A DNA stretch of 64,000 nucleotides, taken from Rhodothermales bacterium. GTDB taxonomy: Bacteria; Bacteroidota; Rhodothermia; Rhodothermales; JANQRZ01. The stretch lies in the NCBI GenBank assembly GCA_965215145.1, contig OZ244038.1, positions 956,579 to 1,020,578 on the forward strand. Direction: 5' to 3'. Below are positions 2,212 to 44,740 of the stretch, one piece after another. A program made the translations under genes and the position numbers. Below the pieces are notes generated by a model. That model searched no databases. It saw only the letters and a list, made by a program, of their open reading frames with translations, and was not told where the DNA came from. Numbering within the stretch: position 1 is the first letter of the stretch; every line of letters starts with the position of its first letter.

Positions 2212-2482
2212 GGGCACCCCGCCGGCCGGCCGGCGTCGGTGCACGGGGGGCGGGGCGCCGGGGGCGAAGGGAGCCCCGGCTCTCGCCTCCTCAGCGGCCC
2301 CAGGAGCCCCGATACAGCCTCCTCCGGGTCACACACACAAAGGGCAGCGGGCGGCGGCGGCCACAGGGCCGCTGAGGGCGCCGAGGTCGGAAGGCGAGGA
2401 GAGGCGAGGATCGCGCCGGTCGTCCTGATCGTCGCCCCTACCTGAGGCTGACGTACTGCAGGGGCGCGCCTCCTCAGCCCCC

Positions 2483-12514: not shown

Positions 12515-13193
12515 CCTCCTCCGCCTACCCCGACGTCACCGCCGCTGGCGCCACCTCGACCCGTACCAAGCCCACCAGCTCGCTTGGCAGGCGTTTCCCG
12601 GTGTGCCCCGCGGCGAGCGCCCGTTCCTCTTCAGCCTCGACGAGCGGGGGCCGCACCACAGCCTCCTCGTCCAGAGCACCCGCCCGCCGGACTGGGCCTT
12701 CCTCGACGGCGATGCCGACGTTCAGACGAAGGCGTTCGACCCGCACCAGATCCCTGCGGGCGAGCCGCTCCGGTTCTTCCTCCGGGCGAATCCGACCGTG
12801 GACCGGCGAGGCTTCGGCGACGGGAAAACGCGGCGGGTCGCCGTCGGTACGAACCCGGACCTCGCCTTCCGGCAGATGGGCCGCCCCGAGGACGCCCCCC
12901 GGACGCCCGCCGCGCGCGCCGAGTGGAGGGAGAGGGAGCTCCGGACGTGGATGCAGCGACAGGGCGAGCGTGGGGGGTTCGACGTCACCACCTGCGCGCC
13001 CGGCCCCATCGTGGGCCGCCGCGTGCAGCGCACGGAGGGGGGACGGCCCAAGGGCCGCCCGATGAAGTTCCACGAGGTGGAGTTCACCGGGACGCTGGAG
13101 GTGAGGGATCCAGAGGCGTTCGTGCGGTCCTATTCGGAGGGCGTAGGCAGGGGTCGTGCGTTCGGGTACGGCTTGCTGATGGTGCGCCCGTAG
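12501..13193 (+). CDS. cas6e: CRISPR RNA endoribonuclease Cas6e (CasE/Cse3)
   Basis: MLHLSLLRL...LDPYQAHQLAWQAFPG...FLFSLDE...HSLLVQS... and the C-terminal GVGRGRAFGYGLLMVRP are typical of Cas6e. The gene overlaps the cas5 end by 14 nt. Confidence 0.85.
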   Translation: MLHLSLLRLPRRHRRWRHLDPYQAHQLAWQAFPGVPRGERPFLFSLDERGPHHSLLVQSTRPPDWAFLDGDADVQTKAFDPHQIPAGEPLRFFLRANPTVDRRGFGDGKTRRVAVGTNPDLAFRQMGRPEDAPRTPAARAEWRERELRTWMQRQGERGGFDVTTCAPGPIVGRRVQRTEGGRPKGRPMKFHEVEFTGTLEVRDPEAFVRSYSEGVGRGRAFGYGLLMVRP

Positions 13194-13280
13194 TCAGAGG
13201 CCGCTTCGGCTCTTCGCAGTACCAACTCGAATTACCTGCTCTTTGACCGTTTGTATGCTCCTTGGTGCGTATTCTTTAGT
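13194..13280 (+). promoter_or_regulatory. CRISPR leader
   Basis: An 87-bp segment, locally AT-richer (..accaactcgaattacctgctctttgaccgtttgtatgctccttggtgcgtattctttagt), lies between the cas6e stop and the first repeat. Repeat degeneracy increases toward the opposite end of the array. Confidence 0.6.
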
Positions 13281-15208
13281 CTCCTCCCCGCGCAGGCGGG
13301 GATGACCCGCACTAGACCAACCCGAAACCGCTTGCTCCATACTCCTCCCCGCGCAGGCGGGGATGACCCCCTCTCGCACCTCTCTACTGAGATGGGCCTG
13401 AGCTCCTCCCCGCGCAGGCGGGGATGACCCTGCGGACTGGAACCGCTCGACGAAAGTTTCCGCCTCCTCCCCGCGCAGGCGGGGATGACCCCCCCATGCC
13501 CCGCATCCCCGAGCCCCCCCGCGCCTCCTCCCCGCGCAGGCGGGGATGACCCCCGGGTCGCTCATTCGTCCGTCACGAGGCATTGCTCCTCCCCGCGCAG
13601 GCGGGGATGACCCGCCCAGCGTCGGCCTGCAACCGCTGGTTCTACGCTCCTCCCCGCGCAGGCGGGGATGACCCCATCAGGCCGAGGGCGCGGCGCTGGT
13701 CGGCGTCCTCCTCCCCGCGCAGGCGGGGATGACCCCGAATACAACCGCCTCCGCGCCGACGCGGAGGACTCCTCCCCGCGCAGGCGGGGATGACCCCTAC
13801 AGCCGCGGCGACCTCACGCAGCCGCTCGTCTCCTCCCCGCGCAGGCGGGGATGACCCGCCTGAACCCCCACCCCCACTCCTATGGCCGACCTCCTCCCCG
13901 CGCAGGCGGGGATGACCCCGGTCCCGCATACGCGAAAAACCGCTACGACGCCTCCTCCCCGCGCAGGCGGGGATGACCCCGAACGAGATCGGCCCGGTGC
14001 CGTTGAGGTCGTCTCCTCCCCGCGCAGGCGGGGATGACCCCTCGCCGTCCGACAGCCACGCCGGGATGCTGTCCTCCTCCCCGCGCAGGCAGGGATGACC
14101 CCGTATACCGCTGCCCCAGGCGGTGGGGCCGACGCTCCTCCCCGCGCAGGCGGGGATGACCCCGGATCGAACATGGCCGCAATGTCCTCGCCGCGGCTCC
14201 TCCCCGCGCAGGCGGGGATGACCCCGCGGCGCAGAATGGCCGATTTCGGCCCCCTCGCTCCTCCCCGCGCAGGCGGGGATGACCCTGCTCCACCCTCAGT
14301 TATCGGTCAGCCTACGAGCTCCTCCCCGCGCAGGCGGGGATGACCCTCGCTGTCGCGGGCCGTCTGAACTACGCACTCCCTCCTCCCCGCGCAGGCGGGG
14401 ATGACCCCGGGGCCCAGACGCCGTTCGTGTGGCCCATTGACTCCTCCCCGCGCAGGCGGGGATGACCCCGGCCACTTCGACGCCGCGGCTGCGCTGCTGC
14501 CCTCCTCCCCGCGCAGGCGGGGATGACCCCCACGTCGGCCAGTCCCCACCGCCGTTGGCGAGCTCCTCCCCGCGCAGGCGGGGATGACCCGCCAAACTCA
14601 CGATCGAGTTGGCGGAACAGGTCCTCCTCCCCGCGCAGGCGGGGATGACCCCCCCTGCTAGGTTCCAAGCGTCCATAGCACCGGCTCCTCCCCGCGCAGG
14701 CGGGGATGACCCCGCCGCCCTCGACACCCTCCTCAGGTTGCTCCCCTCCTCCCCGCGCAGGCGGGGATGACCCGCGGCCGTCTCGAAGACGATCCGCCAG
14801 GGCATCCTCCTCCCCGCGCAGGCGGGGATGACCCCCTCTGATTGAGCGGAACTGCCACCCTTGGTCTCTCCTCCCCGCGCAGGCGGGGATGACCCGCGGT
14901 ATTCCCTCCGCCGCGACGGCCCCAGCTTCTCCTCCTCGCGCAGGCGGGGATGACCCTCACAAGGCGGGGTTCCCGAGCCTCGTTTTCATCTCCTCCCCGC
15001 GCAGGCGGGGATGACCCCTCGTCGGCGCGCTGCATCTCGCCGCCGGTGCCCTCCTCCCCGCGCAGGCGGGGATGACCCGTAAACCCACTACCCCCCTACC
15101 CCCCTACCCCCCTACGTTGCTCCTCCCCGCGCAGGCGGGGATGAACCTGAGCATCGTTTCCTAACGCTCCCGTTGGATGGCTCCTCTCCGTCTATGAGTG
15201 GAGGAGCC
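13281..15208 (+). CRISPR. Type I-E CRISPR array with 31 well-conserved repeats, one decayed terminal repeat and 31 spacers
   Basis: The 28-nt core CTCCTCCCCGCGCAGGCGGGGATGACCC (plus a variable 29th base) recurs with 61-bp phase from 13281 to 15120. Exceptions are spacings of 62 bp at 14135->14197 and 69 bp at 15051->15120. Variant repeats are at 14074 (G>A), 14929 (C>T) and 15120 (..GATGAACC). A 19/28-matching remnant lies at 15181..15208, exactly in phase. The ...GGGGATGACCC orientation parallels the E. coli I-E repeat. Confidence 0.97.
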
Positions 15209-15278
15209 TTCAGCAGCGCCGAGGGAGCAGTGGCCTTCGCCGAGCAGGTAGGAGGCCAATCCTACGGTGTCTGAACCG

Positions 15279-15737
15279 CTAGAGCCGGACGATGGCGTGG
15301 GTGACGACGCCGAACACCCGGAGGTCCTGCCCCTCACCCACGTAGACCGGCGCGTACGCCGCGTTCGCCGACTCCAGGAACGCCCGCCGACGCGGCCCCC
15401 GCCCCTCCAGGCGCAGCCGCTTCACGAGGTACTCCCCGTCCACCGCCGCCACGACGACGTCGCCGTCCTTCGGCTCCCGCGCCCGGTCCACCACCAAAAG
15501 GTCGCCCTCCCCGATCCGGACCCCCTCCATCGAGTCCCCCTCGACCTCGACGAAGAACGTCGCCGCCGCGTCGCGGACGAGGTGCTCGTTGAGGTCGAGC
15601 TTCCGGTCGACGAACGCCTCGGCCGGCGAGGCGAACCCGGCGGCGGGGCGGGGGCGCAGCAGCGGGAGGGCGAGCGAGGACGCCTCCGCGCAGGCGAGGA
15701 AGCGGGCAGCGCGGAGAGGGTAACGGGCGGGCTCCAT
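15279..15737 (-). CDS. umuD: UmuD-like S24 peptidase (translesion polymerase V accessory subunit)
   Basis: PAAGFASPAEAFVDRKLDLNEHLVRDAAATFFVEVEGDSMEGVRIGEGDLLVVDRAREPKDGDVVVAAVDGEYLVKRLRL is collinear with E. coli UmuD. It has the A-G cleavage site, the Ser in GDSM and the Lys in VKRL. Start taken at MEPARYPL. Confidence 0.85.
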   Translation of the reverse strand: MEPARYPLRAARFLACAEASSLALPLLRPRPAAGFASPAEAFVDRKLDLNEHLVRDAAATFFVEVEGDSMEGVRIGEGDLLVVDRAREPKDGDVVVAAVDGEYLVKRLRLEGRGPRRRAFLESANAAYAPVYVGEGQDLRVFGVVTHAIVRL

Positions 15738-24565: not shown

Positions 24566-25453
24566 TCAGGGATGCGGACGGTGCGGGCGGACCTCGACGG
24601 CCAACGGGGTTTCCACAAGGGTGACGGCCTCCAGCCACGGGCGCCCGAACACGACGCGCCGGCGGAGCGCGGCCCGTGCGGCCTCGGCATCACGCGGGTC
24701 GGTGTTGGGGACCTTGTTGCTGATGTAGAGTCCGTGCGCGCCAAAATAGGCGCCGTCCATCATGCAGGCGTCGATGCGGGGCTCGGCCGCGTCGAGGTGG
24801 AACGGTTCGATGGTCGGCTCGAAGCCCTCGGCCTCGACTTCGTGGTGGAGGGTGATCGCGCCGGCGTCGCCGCTCCACGACTCCCACGTCACCGGGCCGT
24901 CCCGGAGCGGGTCCTGCCGGCCATCGACGCGCACGCCGCCGGGGTTGGCCTCGTTCCGGTACACCATCCCGACGGCTTCGGCGCTGAGGTCGAGGAAGCT
25001 CATCGCGCCGGGGATCGGGTGGACCCGCAGCACCGCCTCCGACTCGGCGTAGCCGGCGTAGAACACCCACCGCAGCTCCGTCAGCGGCCCGCTGTTGAAC
25101 CCGACGACGTGGCGGATCGCACGGACCGGCCCGCCGCGGTTGACGACGATGCCGCCCTGGCTCAGCGAGCCGGTGTAGGGCGAGCGCCAGCACACGCCCG
25201 GCTTGAACGCGATCATGTCCACGTCGAGCAGGTCCGGCCCCTCCGAGCCCGCCGAGCGGAGGTGGAGCCGGTTGAGGATCCAGCGGTCCGCGAACCCGAC
25301 GGTGTACGCCGCGGTCTCGACCGTCGTCCGCTCGGGGTTCGAGCCGAGGCGGCGGCCCGAGGGGAATCCCGCCGGCCACCCGACCCACGACGGTGCCGCC
25401 CCGCCTCGGTCGTAGGCGTCGAGGTACGGCCCCCGCTCAAATCCAGACTCGTA
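24566..25453 (-). pseudogene. Host ORF of unknown function, cut at or near its 5' end by the IS element
   Basis: The 296 codons show strong GC3 bias (..GWPAGFPSGRRLGSNPERTTVETAAYTVGFADRWILNRL...) and run directly out of the IS end. With the IS removed, the only possible upstream start is a TTG 17 nt before the insertion point, preceded by an in-frame TGA. Confidence 0.5.
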
Positions 25454-25915
25454 GGCCGTGTGAGACAATCCATGCTTGATCCAGTCCACCGCCGCCGCCA
25501 CGTGGAGCGCGCCGAGGTAGCTCTCGGCCGTCTTCTCGTAGCGCGTCGCCACCGCCCGCCACTCCTTGAGTCGGCCCCACAGTTGCTCTACCCGGTGCCG
25601 CTCGCGGTAGGCCCCCCGGTCGTAGGCCGCTCGGTCGTAGGCCGCTCGGTCGTAGGCCACGGCCGGGTGCGTCCGGTTGGCCGCGACGACGGGCTCGGCT
25701 CCGGCGATCCGGATCCCCGCCCGCCACGAGGCCGACGAGTACCCCCGGTCGCAGACGACCCGGCCCACGCGGCCGAGCCCGACCACGGCGACCAGGAGCG
25801 CGTCGGCCACGCGGAGCTCCGAGCGGTGCCCCGGCAGCAGCCGGAACGCGAGCGCCCGGCCCCGGCGGTCACAGGCGACGACGGCCTTCGTGCCGAAGCC
25901 GCCCCGGCTGCGCCC
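25454..25915 (-). CDS. IS transposase OrfB (DDE domain part), with no stop codon inside the IS
   Basis: GRSRGGFGTKAVVACDRRGRALAFRLLPGHRSE...VVCDRGYSS...YRERHRVEQLWGRLKEWRAVATRYEKTAESYLGALHVAAAVDWI is the typical IS5/IS427 C-terminal half. The frame runs through the IS end into the flanking ORF. Confidence 0.75.
25607..25664. repeat. 15-bp tandem repeat (GTAGGCCGCTCGGTC, about 3.9 copies) inside transposase OrfB
   Basis: Units start at 25607, 25622 and 25637, with a partial unit at 25652. They encode AYDRA-AYDRA-AYDRG in frame. Confidence 0.9.
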
Positions 25916-26143
25916 GAGCGCTACGTCTCGGAGCGCTACGTCTCGGAGCGCTACGTCTCGGAGCGCTACGTCTCGGAGCGCTACGTCTCGGAGCGCTACG
26001 TCTCGGAGCGCTACGTCTCGGAGCGCTACGTCTCGGAGCGCTACGTCTCGGAGCGCTACGTCTCGGAGCGCTACGTCTCGGAGCGCTACGTCTCGGAGCG
26101 CTACGTCTCGGAGCGCTACGTCTCGGAGCGCTACGTCTCGGAG
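25916..26143. repeat. 15-bp tandem repeat GAGCGCTACGTCTCG x15, plus a 3-nt partial unit
   Basis: There are fifteen perfect contiguous units in 25916..26140. Read on the minus strand they give (RDVAL)15 in the OrfB frame and contain the OrfA TAG stop in the OrfA frame. Confidence 0.97.
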
Positions 26144-26505
26144 GGGGCCGTAGCGTCGGGAGCCCCCTTCTTCGCCCCCGCCGCCTTGGGGTGGGCGCGC
26201 ACGACGGTCCCGTCGAGCATGACCGCGGCGAGGTCGGCGTGCCCGGTGTCGCGGAGGTGCTCGAAGGCCCGCTCCCAGACGCCCGAACGGGACCAGCGCT
26301 TGTGGAGTTGGGCGGCGCGCCACCAGGGCCCGAACTCGGCGGGGACGGCGCGCCAGGGTGGGCCGTTCTTGAGGCGCCAGACGACGCCCTCGACGGTGGC
26401 GCGCTCGTCGCGGACGGGGCGGCCTCGACCGGAGCGGGCGTGGTCGAGGGCGGCTTTGAGGGCGGCTTTGAGGGCGGCCCACTCGGGGTCAGTCAGCAAG
26501 GGCAT
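26131..26505 (-). CDS. IS transposase OrfA (DUF4096-like N-terminal HTH part)
   Basis: MPLLTDPEWAAL...RGRPVRDERATVEGVVWRLKNGPPWRAVPAEFGPWWRAAQLHKRWSRSGVWERAF...LDGTVVRAHPKAAGAKKG is the typical IS5/IS427 N-terminal half. Confidence 0.75.
   Translation of the reverse strand: MPLLTDPEWAALKAALKAALDHARSGRGRPVRDERATVEGVVWRLKNGPPWRAVPAEFGPWWRAAQLHKRWSRSGVWERAFEHLRDTGHADLAAVMLDGTVVRAHPKAAGAKKGAPDATAPSET
26446..26478. repeat. 12-bp tandem repeat (GAGGGCGGCTTT, about 2.75 copies) inside transposase OrfA
   Basis: Units lie at 26446..26457 and 26458..26469, with a partial unit to 26478. They encode AALKAALKAAL in frame. Confidence 0.85.
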
Positions 26506-30464: not shown

Positions 30465-33400
30465 CTACGCCACCGCCTCTGGCTCCTCCTCATCCTCCCC
30501 CACCTCGTCCTCCTCCGCCTCGCCCTCCTCGCCCGTGAGCGCGTCGAGGTCCACGGACGAGGGGCACGCGCCGACCGTCTCCTCGGCGCTGCCGCGCTCC
30601 AGCTCCTCCCGGACGAACGGCGCCGTCGCGGTGTCGGCCGCGGCCAGCTCCTCCGGCGTCCCGGTGAACACGATCTCGCCGCCCGCGTCGCCGCCGCCGG
30701 GGCCGAGGTCCACGACGTAGTCGGCCACCTTGACCACGTCGGTGTTGTGCTCGATCACGAGGACCGTGTTCCCCTTCTCGACGAGGGCCTGGAGCACGTG
30801 CAGCAGGTGGCGGATGTCCTCGAAGTGGAGGCCCGTCGTGGGCTCGTCGAGGATGTAGAGCGTGGAGCCGGTGCCGGGCCGCGAGAGCTCCTTCGAGAGC
30901 TTGACCCGCTGCGCCTCGCCGCCGGAGAGGGTCGTGGCCTGCTGCCCAAGGCGGATGTAGCCGAGCCCGACGGCGTCGAGCGTGCGGAGCTTCCGCGCGA
31001 TCCGCGGGACGGCCTCGAAGAACGCCAGTGCCTCCGAGACCGGCATCTCCAGCACCTCGGCGATGGTCCGCCCCTTGTAGCGGACCTCCAGCGTCTCGGC
31101 GTTGTAGCGCCGCCCCTTGCACGTCTCGCAGGCGACGTACACGTCCGGGAGGAAGTTCATCTCCAGCTTCACGATGCCCGCGCCCTTGCACGCCTCGCAC
31201 CGCCCGCCCTTCGTGTTGAAAGAAAAACGGCCGGGCTTGTAGCCGCGGATCTGGGCCTCGGGCGTCCGCGCGAACAGCTCGCGGATGAGCGTGAACAGGC
31301 CGGTGTACGTCGCGGGGTTCGAGCGGGGCGTCCGCCCGATGGGGCTCTGGTCGATGGCGATCACCTTGTCGACGTGCTCCAGCCCCTCGACGTCGCGGTG
31401 GGGGAGCGGGACGCTCTGCGCGTTGTGGAAGTGCGCGGCCAGCAGCGGGTGGAGCGTCTGGTTGATGAGGCTCGACTTCCCGGAGCCCGAGACGCCGGTG
31501 ACGGCCGTGAGCGTCCCGAGCGGGAGCTCGAGGGTCACGTCGCGGAGGTTGTGCCCCCGCGCGCCGATCAGCCGGAGCGTGTGCCCGTTGCCCGCCCTCC
31601 GCTCGGCGGGGACCGGGATGCGGCGCTCGCCGGTGAGGTAGGCCACCGTGAGGCTGTCCGTAGGGGCGTGATTAATCACGCCCCTACCCGCCACGATCTC
31701 CTCCGGCGTGCCCGCGCCTAACACGTGGCCGCCGTACTCCCCCGCGCCCGGGCCGAGGTCCACCACGTAGTCCGCCGCCTCGATCATCTCCCGGTCGTGC
31801 TCGACGACGAGGACCGAGTTGCCGAGGTCGCGGAGCGCGTCGAGGCTGTCGATGAGCTTGCCGTTGTCGCGGGGGTGGAGGCCGATGCTCGGCTCGTCGA
31901 GGACGTACAGGACGCCGGTGAGCTGGGTCCCGATCTGGGTGGCGAGGCGGATCCGCTGGCTCTCGCCGCCGGAGAGCGTCCGCGCCGAGCGGTCGAGGGT
32001 GAGGTAGTCGAGGCCGACGTTGAGGAGGAAGTCGAGGCGCTCGGTGATCTCCTTCACGATGGGCTCGCCGATCACGGCCTGCCGGCCTTCGAGCTCGAGA
32101 TCCGCGAACCACCGGCGGAGCGTGCGGAGGTCCATCCCGACGAGGTCGGCGATGCGCTGGTCGCCGTCGTAGGTGCCGGTGTTGCCGACGCGGTAGCTCA
32201 GGCTCTCCGGCTTGAGGCGCCCGCCGCCGCACGTCCGGCACGCGCGGACCCGCATGAACGCCTCGGCCCACTTCCGCTGGACCGACGAGTTGGTGTTCTC
32301 GTAGGTGTGCCAGACGTGCTGGTAGACGCCGCCGAACCGGTGCTGGTACTTCACCTCCCGCCCCTTGTACTTGTAGACGATGTCGAACTGCTCGTCGCCG
32401 GCGCCGTCGAGGAGCACCTCCCGCTGCCGCTCCGTCAGCTTCTCGACCGGCGTGTCGAAGTCGAACCCGTATCGGTCGGCGACGGCGCGGAGCTGGGAGA
32501 AGACCCACACGTCGCGCGGCCTCCCGAGCGGGACGACGCCGCCCTGGGCGATGGTCTTCGACGGCTCGGGCACGACGAGGTCCGGGTCGATCTCCTTTTT
32601 GACGCCGAGGCCGTTGCAGGCCGGGCACGCGCCGTAGGGGCTGTTGAACGAGAACGTGTTCGGGGAGGGGTCGTCGTAGCTCAGCCCGCCGGCGGGGTCG
32701 GTGAGGTGGCGGCTCATGAGGTGGTCCCCCACCAGATCATCACCGTCGGGAGCCGACAGCACCTGCGCGATCAGCGTGCCCCCGCCCATCCCGAGGGCCA
32801 GCTCGGCGGCGCGGGCGATCCGGGGGCGGACGCCCTCCTTCACCACGAGCCGGTCCACCACCACCTCGATGTCGTGGACGCGGTAGCGGTCGACCTTCAT
32901 CCCCTTCGTGATCTCGCGGAGCTCGCCGTCGACGCGGACGCGCTCGAAGCCCTGCTTGGCGAGCTGCTCGAAGAGGTCGCGGTAGTGGCCCTTCCGGCCG
33001 CGCACCACCGGCGCGAGCACGATCACCCGCGTCCCCTCGGGGAAGGCGAGGACGGTGTCGATGATCTCGTCGTCACTCTGCCGCCGCATCGGCCGGCCGG
33101 ACTTGTACGAGTAGGCGTCGGCGGCGCGGGCGTAGAGGAGCCGGAGGAAGTCGTAGATCTCCGTCACCGTCCCGACCGTGCTCCGGGGGTTCCGGGAGAC
33201 CGTCTTCTGCTCGATGGCGATGACGGGGGAGAGCCCGTCGATGAAGTCCACGTCCGGCCGCTCCATCACCCCGAGGAACTGGCGGGCGTAGGCGGAGAGC
33301 GACTCCATGTAGCGCCGCTGCCCCTCGGCGTAGATGGTGTCGAAGGCGAGGCTCGACTTGCCGCTGCCGGAGAGCCCGGTGATGACGACGAGGCGGTTGC

Positions 33401-33470
33401 GGGGGATGTCGAGGTCGACGTCCTGGAGGTTGTGCTCGCGGGCGCCGCGGATGAGGATCCGGTCGTCCAT
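30465..33470 (-). CDS. uvrA: Excinuclease ABC subunit A
   Basis: MDDRILIRGAREHNLQDVDLDIPRNRLVVITGLSGSGKSSLAFDTIYAEGQRRYMESLSAYARQFLG is followed by the second ATPase module (VTGVSGSGKSSLINQTL...LYILDEPTTGLH). An acidic C-terminal tail is present. Confidence 0.97.
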   Translation of the reverse strand: MDDRILIRGAREHNLQDVDLDIPRNRLVVITGLSGSGKSSLAFDTIYAEGQRRYMESLSAYARQFLGVMERPDVDFIDGLSPVIAIEQKTVSRNPRSTVGTVTEIYDFLRLLYARAADAYSYKSGRPMRRQSDDEIIDTVLAFPEGTRVIVLAPVVRGRKGHYRDLFEQLAKQGFERVRVDGELREITKGMKVDRYRVHDIEVVVDRLVVKEGVRPRIARAAELALGMGGGTLIAQVLSAPDGDDLVGDHLMSRHLTDPAGGLSYDDPSPNTFSFNSPYGACPACNGLGVKKEIDPDLVVPEPSKTIAQGGVVPLGRPRDVWVFSQLRAVADRYGFDFDTPVEKLTERQREVLLDGAGDEQFDIVYKYKGREVKYQHRFGGVYQHVWHTYENTNSSVQRKWAEAFMRVRACRTCGGGRLKPESLSYRVGNTGTYDGDQRIADLVGMDLRTLRRWFADLELEGRQAVIGEPIVKEITERLDFLLNVGLDYLTLDRSARTLSGGESQRIRLATQIGTQLTGVLYVLDEPSIGLHPRDNGKLIDSLDALRDLGNSVLVVEHDREMIEAADYVVDLGPGAGEYGGHVLGAGTPEEIVAGRGVINHAPTDSLTVAYLTGERRIPVPAERRAGNGHTLRLIGARGHNLRDVTLELPLGTLTAVTGVSGSGKSSLINQTLHPLLAAHFHNAQSVPLPHRDVEGLEHVDKVIAIDQSPIGRTPRSNPATYTGLFTLIRELFARTPEAQIRGYKPGRFSFNTKGGRCEACKGAGIVKLEMNFLPDVYVACETCKGRRYNAETLEVRYKGRTIAEVLEMPVSEALAFFEAVPRIARKLRTLDAVGLGYIRLGQQATTLSGGEAQRVKLSKELSRPGTGSTLYILDEPTTGLHFEDIRHLLHVLQALVEKGNTVLVIEHNTDVVKVADYVVDLGPGGGDAGGEIVFTGTPEELAAADTATAPFVREELERGSAEETVGACPSSVDLDALTGEEGEAEEDEVGEDEEEPEAVA
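31660..31687. repeat. 28-bp perfect palindrome GTAGGGGCGTGATTAATCACGCCCCTAC inside the uvrA coding sequence
   Basis: Seen directly. It is translated as G-R-G-V-I-N-H-A-P-T in the uvrA frame. The AT-rich centre is conspicuous in a gene of about 70% GC. Confidence 0.95.
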
Positions 33471-40889: not shown

Positions 40890-40954
40890 GTAGGGGCGGA
40901 CCCGCGTGTCCGCCCTGAACCGCCGAGGGGCCGGGCACGTGCGTCCGTCCCTAC
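40890..40954. repeat. REP-like inverted doublet (GTAGGGGCGGAC ... GTCCGTCCCTAC)
   Basis: The outer arms are at 40890..40901 and 40943..40954, with an inner partner GTCCGCCCT at 40907..40915. The 3' arm contains the TAG stop of the ABC ATPase gene (minus strand). Confidence 0.7.
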
Positions 40955-41708: not shown

Positions 41709-41781
41709 GTAGGGGCGGGCCTTGTGCCCGCCCCCGTCGAGACAGCAGTCGGGAGCGGGCGACCACGAGGGTCGCCCCTAC
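41709..41781. repeat. REP-like inverted doublet (GTAGGGGCG ... CGCCCCTAC)
   Basis: GTAGGGGCG lies at 41709..41717 with a local hairpin GGGGCGGGC-cttgt-GCCCGCCCC. CGCCCCTAC lies at 41773..41781. The element sits between the adaptor and ATPase genes. Confidence 0.7.
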
Positions 41782-43224: not shown

Positions 43225-43252
43225 GTAGGGGCGCAGCGCGCTGCGCCCCTAC
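43225..43252. repeat. 28-bp perfect palindrome GTAGGGGCGCAGCGCGCTGCGCCCCTAC (REP-like)
   Basis: Seen directly between the TolC-like stop (43268) and the adaptor start. Confidence 0.95.
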
Positions 43253-43267
43253 AACCTTAGAGGACAT

Positions 43268-44740
43268 TTATTCGAACGGTACCGTGTCCGCGTCGAGCGT
43301 GCCGACGGCGTAGTCGAGCAGCGTCCGCTGGAAGACGAATTGGGCCACGGCCTGCGCCCTGGCGCTCCGGGCTTCGACGAGGCGGGCCTGCGCCTGCGCC
43401 CGCTCCGTCAGCGTCGAGACGCCGAGGGCGTAGCGCTCCTGCTCGGCCGCGAGGGCGACCTCGGCGGCCTCGACCTGCCGGGCCGTCACGTCGAGGCGCT
43501 TCTCGGCGTTGCGGTAGTCGAGGTACGCCTGCCGGACCTCGAGGGCGACGTCCTGCTCCAGGTCCTCGAGCGCGATCCGCGCGTTCTCCCGCGCGAGCCG
43601 CGCCTGCCGCACCTGCGCCCGCGTGGCGAACCGGTCGAAGATCGGGATGTCGATCGAGAGGCCGACCGAGCCGCCGCGGTTGTCGGTGAAGAACTGGCTC
43701 CCGAAGGGGGCCTCCTCGAACTCCGGCGAGCCGGGGATCACGAACGGCTCGCCGCCGATGAAGACGGGGTCACCGGAGGCCGTGGTCACGGGGGTCACCG
43801 TACCGGTGCCGTCGATGGGGCGGGAGGCGAGGCTGGAGTAGCTGGAGCCGTACGAGGCGAAGAGGTCCACGCGCGGGTAGTACCCGCCCTTGGCCGCCTG
43901 CACCGAGGCGTCGGCCGCCGCGATGGCGCGCTCCTGCGCCGCGAGGTCCACTCGGCGGTCGTAGGCGGCGGTGAGGAGCGCTTCGAGGTCGTAGGCCGCC
44001 GGCGTCAGCGCGACGGCCTCGAGGTCCGGGGCCGTGAAGGCGTACGCCTCGAAGGGGTCGAGCTGGAGGGTGCCGACGAGCCGCGTCCGCGCCAGCTCGA
44101 GCTGGCTCTCCGCCTGGAGCAACGCGAGCTCGGCCTCGGCGACCAGCGCCGCCTGCTGGAACAGGTCGGCCCGCGCCCGCACCCCGCCCTCAACCAACTG
44201 CTCGACCTGGGCGAGCTGCTGCTCCTGCGCGCCGAGGGCCTCGCGGCGGATCGTCACGAGCTCGGCGTCGAGGAGCGTCTGCAGGAACTCGTTGCCGACG
44301 GTGAAGAGCACGTTCTGCTCGGCCCGCTCCAGGTCCAGCCGGCCGACCTCCCGTTCGAGCCGCCGCTGCCGCAGCGTCGCCACGTCGCTGAACCCGTTGA
44401 AGACGTTGATGCCGAGGGACGCCGAGGCGCTGAGGGCCTCGCTCGTCTCCTGCTCCAGCCGCCCCGTCGTCTGGTCGAAGGCGAGCCCGTAGCGCTGGGC
44501 CGGGGTGAGGGACGCCGAGAGGTTCGGGAGGAACGAGGCGCGGGCGAAGTCGACGGCCTCGCCGCGGGCCTGCACGGCGTTCTCGGCGCGGCGGAGGTCG
44601 GTGTTCTGGCGGAGCGCGATCTGCAGCGCCTCCTCGAAGGTGATCTCGCGGGCTGGCCCGTCCTGCAGAACGTCCTGGGCCGCCGCGGTGGGCTGGATCA
44701 GCAGAAGGGCGAGGAGTAGACCGTAGCCGAAACGGGGCAT
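43268..44740 (-). CDS. TolC-family outer membrane efflux protein
   Basis: Signal peptide MPRFGYGLLLALLLIQPTAAAQ. The two TolC repeats show the characteristic L-x-x-A-x-x-x-A-L-x-x-N-x-D-L and coiled-coil Ala/Leu/Glu/Arg-rich pattern. Confidence 0.85.
   Translation of the reverse strand: MPRFGYGLLLALLLIQPTAAAQDVLQDGPAREITFEEALQIALRQNTDLRRAENAVQARGEAVDFARASFLPNLSASLTPAQRYGLAFDQTTGRLEQETSEALSASASLGINVFNGFSDVATLRQRRLEREVGRLDLERAEQNVLFTVGNEFLQTLLDAELVTIRREALGAQEQQLAQVEQLVEGGVRARADLFQQAALVAEAELALLQAESQLELARTRLVGTLQLDPFEAYAFTAPDLEAVALTPAAYDLEALLTAAYDRRVDLAAQERAIAAADASVQAAKGGYYPRVDLFASYGSSYSSLASRPIDGTGTVTPVTTASGDPVFIGGEPFVIPGSPEFEEAPFGSQFFTDNRGGSVGLSIDIPIFDRFATRAQVRQARLARENARIALEDLEQDVALEVRQAYLDYRNAEKRLDVTARQVEAAEVALAAEQERYALGVSTLTERAQAQARLVEARSARAQAVAQFVFQRTLLDYAVGTLDADTVPFE

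Follow-up and report, generated by a model that had tools for sequence, protein, structure and literature searches.

How does a perfect palindrome come to be read as protein within a DNA repair gene, and is such a sequence native to the gene or a copy of something mobile? The locus that raises this question is uvrA in a 64-kb stretch of the genome of a Rhodothermales bacterium (contig OZ244038.1; hereafter the window, meaning the whole stretch analysed), where an initial annotation made from the sequence alone had noticed a 28-bp palindrome and taken it for a copy of a dispersed element resembling repetitive extragenic palindromes (REPs). Our data bear out that view: the element's codons are atypical of uvrA, the same 28-mer recurs elsewhere, the family to which it belongs crosses phyla and is linked to genes for REP-associated tyrosine transposases (RAYTs), and the element is absent from relatives. 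We consider it very probable that the uvrA palindrome is in origin a mobile REP of the double-foot type. Two features carry the argument:

Positions 30465..33470, minus strand: uvrA, 1001 amino acids, intact and full length by open reading frame (ORF) and translation; the host gene of the element.
Positions 31660..31687, no strand assigned: double-foot REP made up of a GTAG foot, a GGGCGTGAT-TA-ATCACGCCC hairpin and a CTAC foot, lying in frame in uvrA.

A foreign palindrome in the reading frame of uvrA

The product of 30465-33470 is UvrA, matching solved UvrA structures over its full length (E=0) and retrieving 8000 homologues. Its identity is 84-85% to UvrAs of uncultured Rubricoccaceae relatives and 75-80% to the UvrAs of Rubrivirga and Rubricoccus, values that place the source organism in the Rubricoccaceae (Rhodothermales). 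The window is 72% G+C, and the G+C content at third codon positions (GC3) of uvrA, according to a GC3-based gene map, is 0.98.

Direct inspection and pattern search agree that 31660-31687 reads GTAGGGGCGTGATTAATCACGCCCCTAC, a perfect palindrome of 28 bp, and the translation matches the peptide GRGVINHAPT that had been reported for it: on the coding strand, the codons G|GT AGG GGC GTG ATT AAT CAC GCC CCT AC|G specify UvrA residues 595-604. The remaining two frames are closed by stops (G-TAG and GTA-GGG-GCG-TGA), and because the element is palindromic the same is true of both strands. The assertion that uvrA uses the single stop-free frame, whichever the orientation, can thus be read directly from the sequence.

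The palindrome has the anatomy of a GTAG-tagged REP. Its terminal GTAG directly abuts the stem GGGCGTGAT/ATCACGCCC, as is also the case at 40890, 41709, 41781 (minus strand) and 43225, where related repeats lie (see below). As single-stranded DNA (ssDNA) it forms a stable hairpin with 12 paired positions and a 4-nt loop, at -13.9 kcal/mol compared to -2.3 +/- 1.5 in shuffled sequences (z = -7.9); the surrounding RNA context folds at -44.5 kcal/mol (z = -3.15), and this fold contains the same hairpin. Both feet that mark a double-foot REP (5' GT[AG]G and 3' C[TC]AC) are present, and every copy in the window has a GGG...CCC stem base, providing three G-C pairs, immediately within its feet. The interval 31300-32000 contains nothing resembling a terminator or a promoter, and there is no Rfam match at the element, the gathering-threshold Rfam matches in the window being two tRNAs only. 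An intrinsic terminator or a known structured RNA was therefore rejected as an identity for the palindrome, given neither a U-tract terminator nor an Rfam match.

Codon usage sets the element apart from its host gene. Just 21 of the 1001 codons in uvrA end in A or T, and four of these fall among the ten codons of the element, which hold the gene's sole ATT (1 of 46 Ile codons, the other 45 being ATC), its sole AAT (1 of 23 Asn codons, with 22 AAC) and its sole CCT (1 of 48 Pro codons), along with one of its two GGT and one of its three AGG codons. The initial annotation had named as its refutation the case in which orthologues all share these residues without the palindromic DNA; the encoded signature was instead found in none of the 119 other closest UvrA homologues (best 120 listed), and no other uvrA among the sampled loci carries the element. 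The palindrome is foreign to uvrA, not native sequence.

The repeat family and its link to RAYT transposases

Within the window, the pattern GTAGGGGCG-N10-CGCCCCTAC matches twice (31660-31687 and 43225-43252), compared to 0.02 matches in dinucleotide-preserving shuffles, confirming the earlier observation that an intergenic palindrome at 43225..43252 shares the 9-bp termini and 28-bp length of the uvrA copy. The head GTAGGGGCG by itself occurs eight times in the window, roughly four-fold the approximately two occurrences expected from composition; in seven relatives, the 135 kb surrounding uvrA contain only two, as chance predicts. The family is thus enriched in the window and not in the sampled regions of relatives. 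A looser scan of the window for GT[AG]G plus a hairpin gave 106 matches versus 66 +/- 7 in shuffles and is too noisy for counting, and family members in the window were accepted only with the GTAGGGGCG head. Besides the uvrA copy, the following copies and candidates were recorded:

Positions 43225..43252, no strand assigned: another double-foot REP, which shares its 9-nt arms with the uvrA copy and has a self-complementary centre, CAGCGCGCTG; a perfect 28-bp palindrome.
Positions 41709..41781 (73 bp), no strand assigned: inverted REP dimer with its GTAG feet outward, in the spacer between two minus-strand genes.
Positions 40890..40954 (65 bp), no strand assigned: inverted REP dimer between convergent ORFs, its first unit clean and its second degenerate.
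Positions 2433..2466, no strand assigned: possible decayed pair (CGCCCCTAC, 16 nt, GCAGGGGCG) in an intergenic gap, with no convincing stems and weak membership of the family.

The palindrome at 43225-43252 occupies a 58-nt spacer, flanked by the stop (43268-43270) of one minus-strand gene and the ATG (43209) of the next. The dimer at 41709-41781 reads GTAG-GGGCGGGC-CTTGT-GCCCGCCC ... GGGCGACC-ACGAG-GGTCGCCC-CTAC, with perfect 8-bp stems in both units, while the second unit of the 40890 dimer has a GTAGGGACG head and a poor stem. The related doublets that had been noted at these two positions are therefore real inverted GTAG dimers, though one 40890 unit is degenerate. All three of these other copies (40890, 41709 and 43225) are intergenic, between unidirectional or convergent genes, which is the classical setting of REPs. 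At 40951-40954, the CTAC foot of the degenerate 40890 unit, GTAG when read on the minus strand, overlaps the minus-strand gene that finishes at 40951 and gives it its TAG stop (…GTG GCG TAG|GGACGG…); this REP abuts the 3' end of the gene and may have redefined that end.

Scanning one genome per species for GTAGGGGCG-N10-CGCCCCTAC returned at least 119 stretches with at least 126 sites, all from other species. The listed matches span Chloroflexota, Cyanobacteria, Planctomycetota, Desulfobacterota, Acidobacteriota, Gemmatimonadota, Bacteroidota, Salinibacteraceae, candidate phyla and others, at a local G+C of 32-71%. The GGG...CCC stem base in all 126 listed sites follows from the search pattern itself; the N10 centre is a perfect palindrome in 90 of them, where chance would give 1 in 1024. 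Conservation thus concerns a hairpin whose feet and stem base are fixed and whose top is free but self-complementary, not a peptide. Recurring centres among the listed sites are TATTGCAATA, CACGGCCGTG, CAGCATGCTG and GTTCGCGAAC, and both stop-free frames of the family are used, giving peptides of the form xRGxxxxAPT and VGAxxxxPL. For annotation, these peptides should be regarded as DNA-driven, not protein-driven, and not as conserved motifs. Exact copies of GTAGGGGCGTGATTAATCACGCCCCTAC were recovered from 58 unrelated metagenome contigs whose G+C is 29-67% and whose flanking sequences are unrelated, and elements of the same type lie in frame elsewhere in genes for a polyketide synthase, an AcrB-type pump, glutamate synthase (between two domains), TonB (before the C-terminal domain), an oxoprolinase and an FGE-sulfatase protein. 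A literature search for sequence strings of the element gave unrelated primer or promoter matches only.

At 11 of 187 sampled sites (about 0.7 expected), the 28-bp element is exactly centred in a perfect palindrome of greater length, which extends the pairing by 4-10 bases to either side and has outer sequences that differ among sites (L167:1243-1286, L168:265-310, L174:2254-2301, L081:1362-1401, L123:1815-1854, plus six more). These may represent insertion into the loops of existing hairpins, or inverted target duplication. A 28-bp extension in L175 runs to the contig end and may be an assembly artefact.

In the classification of Quentin et al. 2018 (PMC6006769), TnpA_REP subclass 2.4, equivalent to Bertels' RAYT group 4, is recognised by the motifs NH[IFV]H, WQ and YIxNNP, is found in Cyanobacteria, Bacteroidetes and various phyla, and goes with "double foot" REPs, whose feet are GT[AG]G (5') and C[TC]AC (3') and whose stem begins with three G-C pairs; REPs inserted in frame in tnpA_REP genes, between HuH and Y, were also described. 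Our elements resemble this group in their feet, G-C stem base, phylum spread and in-frame copies within RAYT genes, all of which we saw in related loci.

All-against-all clustering of 3410 ORFs from the 119 listed loci revealed no gene that regularly adjoins the palindrome, and the sole recurrent gene link was to homologous ORFs that contain it (loci L015, L072 and L116). In these and in L148, the palindrome lies in frame in a Y1/HUH transposase gene. The L015 protein matches NCBIfam REP_Tyr_transpos at E 4.6e-16, and Pfam Y1_Tnp is weakly matched by L015 and L072, the scores of both falling under curated cut-offs because the insertion splits the domain; L116 has no Pfam match, and L148 was recognised by tblastn only. 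The RAYT gene of L148 contains the exact 28-mer and encodes …MPNHMHGIIEICSEMLGRGVINHAPT…, that is, GRGVINHAPT, 14 residues past MPNHMH. Searching with the L015 protein retrieved 3710 relatives, many of them named "REP element-mobilizing transposase RayT" by their sources. Among the best 120 of the 3710, to which the analysis refers, palindrome peptides occur in 69 (xRGxxxxAPT in 60, VGAxxxxPL in 10, one protein with both), mostly 11-100 residues past the HUH motif, and the subclass 2.4 motifs are present in 120 (NHxH), 119 (WQ) and 115 (Y[IVL]xxNP) of the 120. The family is thus associated with RAYT genes, and the association with subclass 2.4, in-frame copies included, is observed in other genomes.

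In L015 (2659-3169) and L148 (2-547), the HUH-containing N-terminal half of the transposase gene is bracketed by two inverted copies of the same double-foot REP, one lying just upstream of the start codon and the other within the ORF. The bracketing arms in L015 are 38 nt long, 97% complementary and 435 nt apart.

These data bear on whether the loop in UvrA might simply have evolved in place, its palindromy and likeness to repeats being coincidental or due to local sequence convergence. The loop is hypervariable, with novel sequence often arising there, and the lack of an empty site among the seven relatives' loci would also suit such an origin. Yet the family pattern is present in the window at a hundred times the chance rate (2 versus 0.02), and the clustering of five unique or near-unique codon types in ten codons, the recurrence of the exact 28-mer in 58 unrelated contigs and the encoding of the same ten-residue peptide within a RAYT gene effectively refute a native origin, which we regard as hardly credible.

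The insertion site in UvrA

Alignment with HMMER places an 8-residue gap directly under GRGVINHA in 2R6F of G. stearothermophilus and other solved UvrAs (EEIVAGRGVINHAPTDSLT versus EEVM------ND--PNSLT), in line with the estimate in the initial annotation that this segment is 8-9 residues longer; its excess over the closest relatives, which are 83-85% identical, is six residues only. An AlphaFold2 model built from a 52-sequence alignment (mean predicted local distance difference test score (pLDDT) 80.8, predicted template modelling score (pTM) 0.77) renders residues 594-606 as coil between helices at 589-593 and 607-612, with pLDDT <50 at 600-603. The element sits in the linker that leaves ATP-binding domain I toward the second ATPase module, and the coil, the low confidence and the variable length of this linker point to a permissive surface loop. 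Among the 120 closest homologues the loop is the most length-variable stretch shown, ranging from about 4 to more than 65 residues: about 4 in more distant Rhodothermales, 6 in the nearest relatives (AKGSAE) and 10 in Rubrivirga (ATFEGDGAPP).

Long insertions unrelated to the palindrome are found in the same UvrA linker of other relatives (P0057 at L125:3940-4180, P0046, P0050, P0053, P0089 and P0106). P0057 has about 55 extra residues, including SHVTRHTS repeated twice, coded by short repeats of the CACGTCA type and by runs of GAT. In Rubricoccaceae, repeat-driven expansion seems to have a general hotspot in this linker. UvrA itself closes with an acidic tail of about 40 residues (…EEGEAEEDEVGEDEEEPEAVA; residues 962-1001, window 30465-30590), which is found in none of the aligned solved UvrAs and has pLDDT <50 in the model; the tails of relatives are acidic too, and variable.

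Origin of the uvrA copy and its precedents

We propose that the REP would have reached uvrA in the form of a single-stranded hairpin, with an HUH/Y1 enzyme moving or copying it. Its placement in single-stranded uvrA DNA would have been the work of a subclass 2.4 RAYT, or of replication or repair machinery with the hairpin as substrate, and probably came after the split from the nearest sequenced relatives. Direct participation of a RAYT in this particular insertion is a step that we favour moderately. Inserting the 28 bp alone would have shifted the frame, 28 not being divisible by three. GG flanks the element on both sides, and deleting 28+2 nt yields an in-frame GTG GCG GAC AGC, which would fit a duplication of 2 nt. 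In a repair gene of importance to the cell, selection would have spared only in-frame, stop-free insertions in a tolerant loop, and the element may have survived by combining a total length that is a multiple of three (28 bp plus GG), the use by uvrA of the stop-free frame, and a flexible, variable linker as its site. Its stem, which is perfect, and its codons, as yet unameliorated, argue for a recent event.

We regard the element as most probably neutral for UvrA, a passenger in the protein. The uvrA mRNA and ssDNA gain a strong hairpin from it, but, given no terminator tail, promoter-like site or Rfam match, a regulatory role is possible yet unsupported.

Several observations weigh against this account. 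In the nearest relatives, five other codons (K-G-S/A-A-E/D) stand in place of the ten codons of the element, which gives a net change of 18 nt instead of 28 or 30, and no base-precise empty site was found in the uvrA loci of the seven relatives; simple cut-and-paste into an ancestral sequence is therefore undemonstrated. The precise insertion of about 27 nt that the initial annotation expected from comparison with orthologues accordingly did not emerge, the loop being hypervariable and the nearest relative 85% identical. The flanks of the 126 listed sites show no target consensus, beyond a mild pyrimidine preference at -1/-2, and 2-nt direct repeats flank 16 of the 126 versus 7.9 expected, a weak excess that makes target duplication weak at most; with no target rule and so little duplication, the insertion chemistry is something we infer. 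Rubrivirga-type relatives encode G-D-G-A-P-P at the site (GGC GAC GGC GCC CCG CCC), which is loosely like G-R-G...A-P-T with its centre deleted and is suggestive of an older event. Unlike the described subclass 2.4 cases, the host gene here is uvrA of a Rubricoccaceae and tblastn with a RAYT found no RAYT gene within the 64-kb window. Finally, we know of no system in which in vivo mobilisation of REPs by RAYTs has been shown directly.

The Rubrivirga loop is also the leading argument for an ancient insertion kept for function, in which an ancestral hairpin has stayed perfect here while relatives lost or eroded it, and which might act as an mRNA hairpin tuning uvrA translation or decay or as a binding site for a RAYT or another protein. 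Besides GDGAPP, the relative P0010 has GDGAT at the same position, the Rubrivirga DNA (GGGCG-ACGG-CGCCC) forms a short inverted repeat recalling the inner stem of the element, the loop in L003 has CGT AGG (rare codons, containing GTAGG), the folded RNA context is more stable than expected (z = -3.15, as above), and REPs in repair genes have been speculated not to be fortuitous (PMC3733652). However, perfect palindromy and A/T-ending codons in a gene of GC3 0.98 argue for youth, the closest relatives (P0002-P0009) are without APT- or GRG-like residues, three substitutions are needed to turn AGG into GAC, and DNA of 72% GC is rich in 5-bp G+C inverted repeats. Together with the lack of any terminator-like or promoter-like feature or Rfam match, and with the identical 28-mer in unrelated contexts elsewhere, this leads us to consider ancient, functional retention improbable. 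We also considered GDGAPP of Rubrivirga as an eroded REP, which is suggestive yet not demonstrable and counts only as part of this alternative.

Relatives carry palindromes of their own near uvrA: xxCTGGTGGCCACCAGxx occurs three times in L001 (5017-5036, 6470-6489 and 15180-15197), and the short perfect palindrome CCCCGCTGGCGCCAGCGGGG occurs twice in L126 (5748-5767 and 16158-16177). In Rubrivirga (L124:16499-16522), AGGGGCACGGCGCGCCGTGCCCCT followed by AC constitutes a near double-foot REP without the 5' GT.

The lack of a RAYT gene in the window raises the question of whether the REP could have been created or moved without one, by central deletion of an inverted dimer in uvrA, by gene conversion or by template switching, in a genome that may no longer hold a RAYT. 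Both the origin of double-foot REPs by central deletion of an inverted dimer and the existence of genomes carrying REPs without tnpA_REP have been noted (PMC6006769). The window holds dimers (65 and 73 bp) as well as double-foot forms, and the loop differs from those of relatives by replacement, not pure insertion. Nevertheless, many other genomes, and one RAYT gene, contain the exact 28-mer with its centre TGATTAATCA as a unit; it was therefore probably acquired whole, not made locally. We judge an origin without a RAYT to be very unlikely, and it departs from the RAYT-mediated mobile origin that we favour in the last mechanistic step only.

Rickettsia palindromic elements (RPEs), the precedent cited in the initial annotation, are palindromic repeats of roughly 100-150 bp that enter genes in frame, are tolerated in surface-exposed segments and are not known outside Rickettsia; nor, to our knowledge, do they have an associated RAYT. 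Two short ones, RPE-4 and RPE-6, are members of a CGTC-tagged superfamily, not GTAG (PMC3733652), and an element of 28 bp that is GTAG-tagged and sits in a Rubricoccaceae genome is ruled out as an RPE. That in-frame palindromes are known from Rickettsia thus holds, but they are not confined there (PMC3733652, PMC6006769), and the present case is less unusual than that annotation had assumed.

Closer precedents are the GTAG REPs catalogued by Di Nocera, De Gregorio & Rocco 2013 (PMC3733652), which have a terminal GTAG or GTRG next to a stem of 5-13 bp with a short loop, occur as singles and inverted dimers, and lie mostly downstream of ORFs, mainly between unidirectional or convergent ORFs. The intragenic minority specify peptides of 7-30 residues in which G, A, P, V and R are frequent; in-frame copies were listed in many genes, with stress on replication and repair (uvrA, uvrB, dnaE2, recBCD), including uvrA of Opitutus terrae (Oter_3168, residues 224-239 and 440-462; also Oter_2709), Thioalkalivibrio uvrA and, as a REP, uvrB of R. 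conorii (PMC3733652). The present repeats are like these in being GTAG palindromes that occur, within the window, as singles and inverted dimers, with an in-frame minority and with uvrA as a host. They are unlike them in REP family, phylum and UvrA site (the linker at 595-604, not the O. terrae sites), and in having both feet where the catalogued elements have one GTAG tag. The element type, its RAYT link, its location inside ORFs and even uvrA as host are therefore already documented.

The REP-BIME-REPIN systems of E. coli and Pseudomonas are associated with an HUH/Y1 enzyme that binds and cleaves REP ssDNA (PMC2817692, PMC3479197, PMC8266576). The likeness lies in this kind of enzyme, a GTAG head with a palindrome (imperfect there), inverted dimers and an intergenic location after ORFs; the REPs of those systems are single-footed and species-specific in sequence, with bulged stems and RAYTs of subclass 2.2 or 2.5. 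In contrast, the present element is perfect, two-footed and 28 bp long, with arms identical across phyla.

This case documents in some detail a 28-bp mobile hairpin made part of a protein of an essential pathway without breaking that protein, and its verbatim identity across very different genomes adds to its interest. With it, Rhodothermales/Rubricoccaceae, and the linker from nucleotide-binding domain (NBD) I to NBD-II, join the short list of REP-decorated repair genes. An excess of REP hits in repair genes was suspected by Di Nocera et al. (PMC3733652), and uvrA in our window is an independent hit in a nucleotide excision repair (NER) gene, at a new site and in a new phylum. A bolder reading would make the uvrA copy the footprint of one currently active, pan-bacterial RAYT-REP system, in which the hairpin is carried in the transposase ORF, flexible linkers are preferred and NER genes are perhaps over-hit. 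We hold this to be unlikely, if less so than the alternatives above; if true, it would explain identical 9-nt arms, even whole 28-mers, across 29%-72% GC and many phyla, and REP insertion could tune repair capacity or mutation rate. This REP/RAYT pair is well suited to asking whether REPs are still mobile and whether repair genes are hit non-randomly.

The window also contains repeats of other kinds. A perfect 15-bp tandem repeat, GAGCGCTACGTCTCG, fills 25916-26143 with 15.2 copies that are 100% identical; it lies inside a long minus-strand ORF (24566-26488), where it would encode a five-residue repeat, and a related 15-bp array of 3.5 copies is found at 25607-25658. An 8-bp tandem repeat, CCCCCTAC, is present in four copies at 15084-15115, in a gap of the gene map (13193-15279), and surfaced in a 1-mismatch search for the REP head because the reverse complement of the array contains GTAGGGGG.

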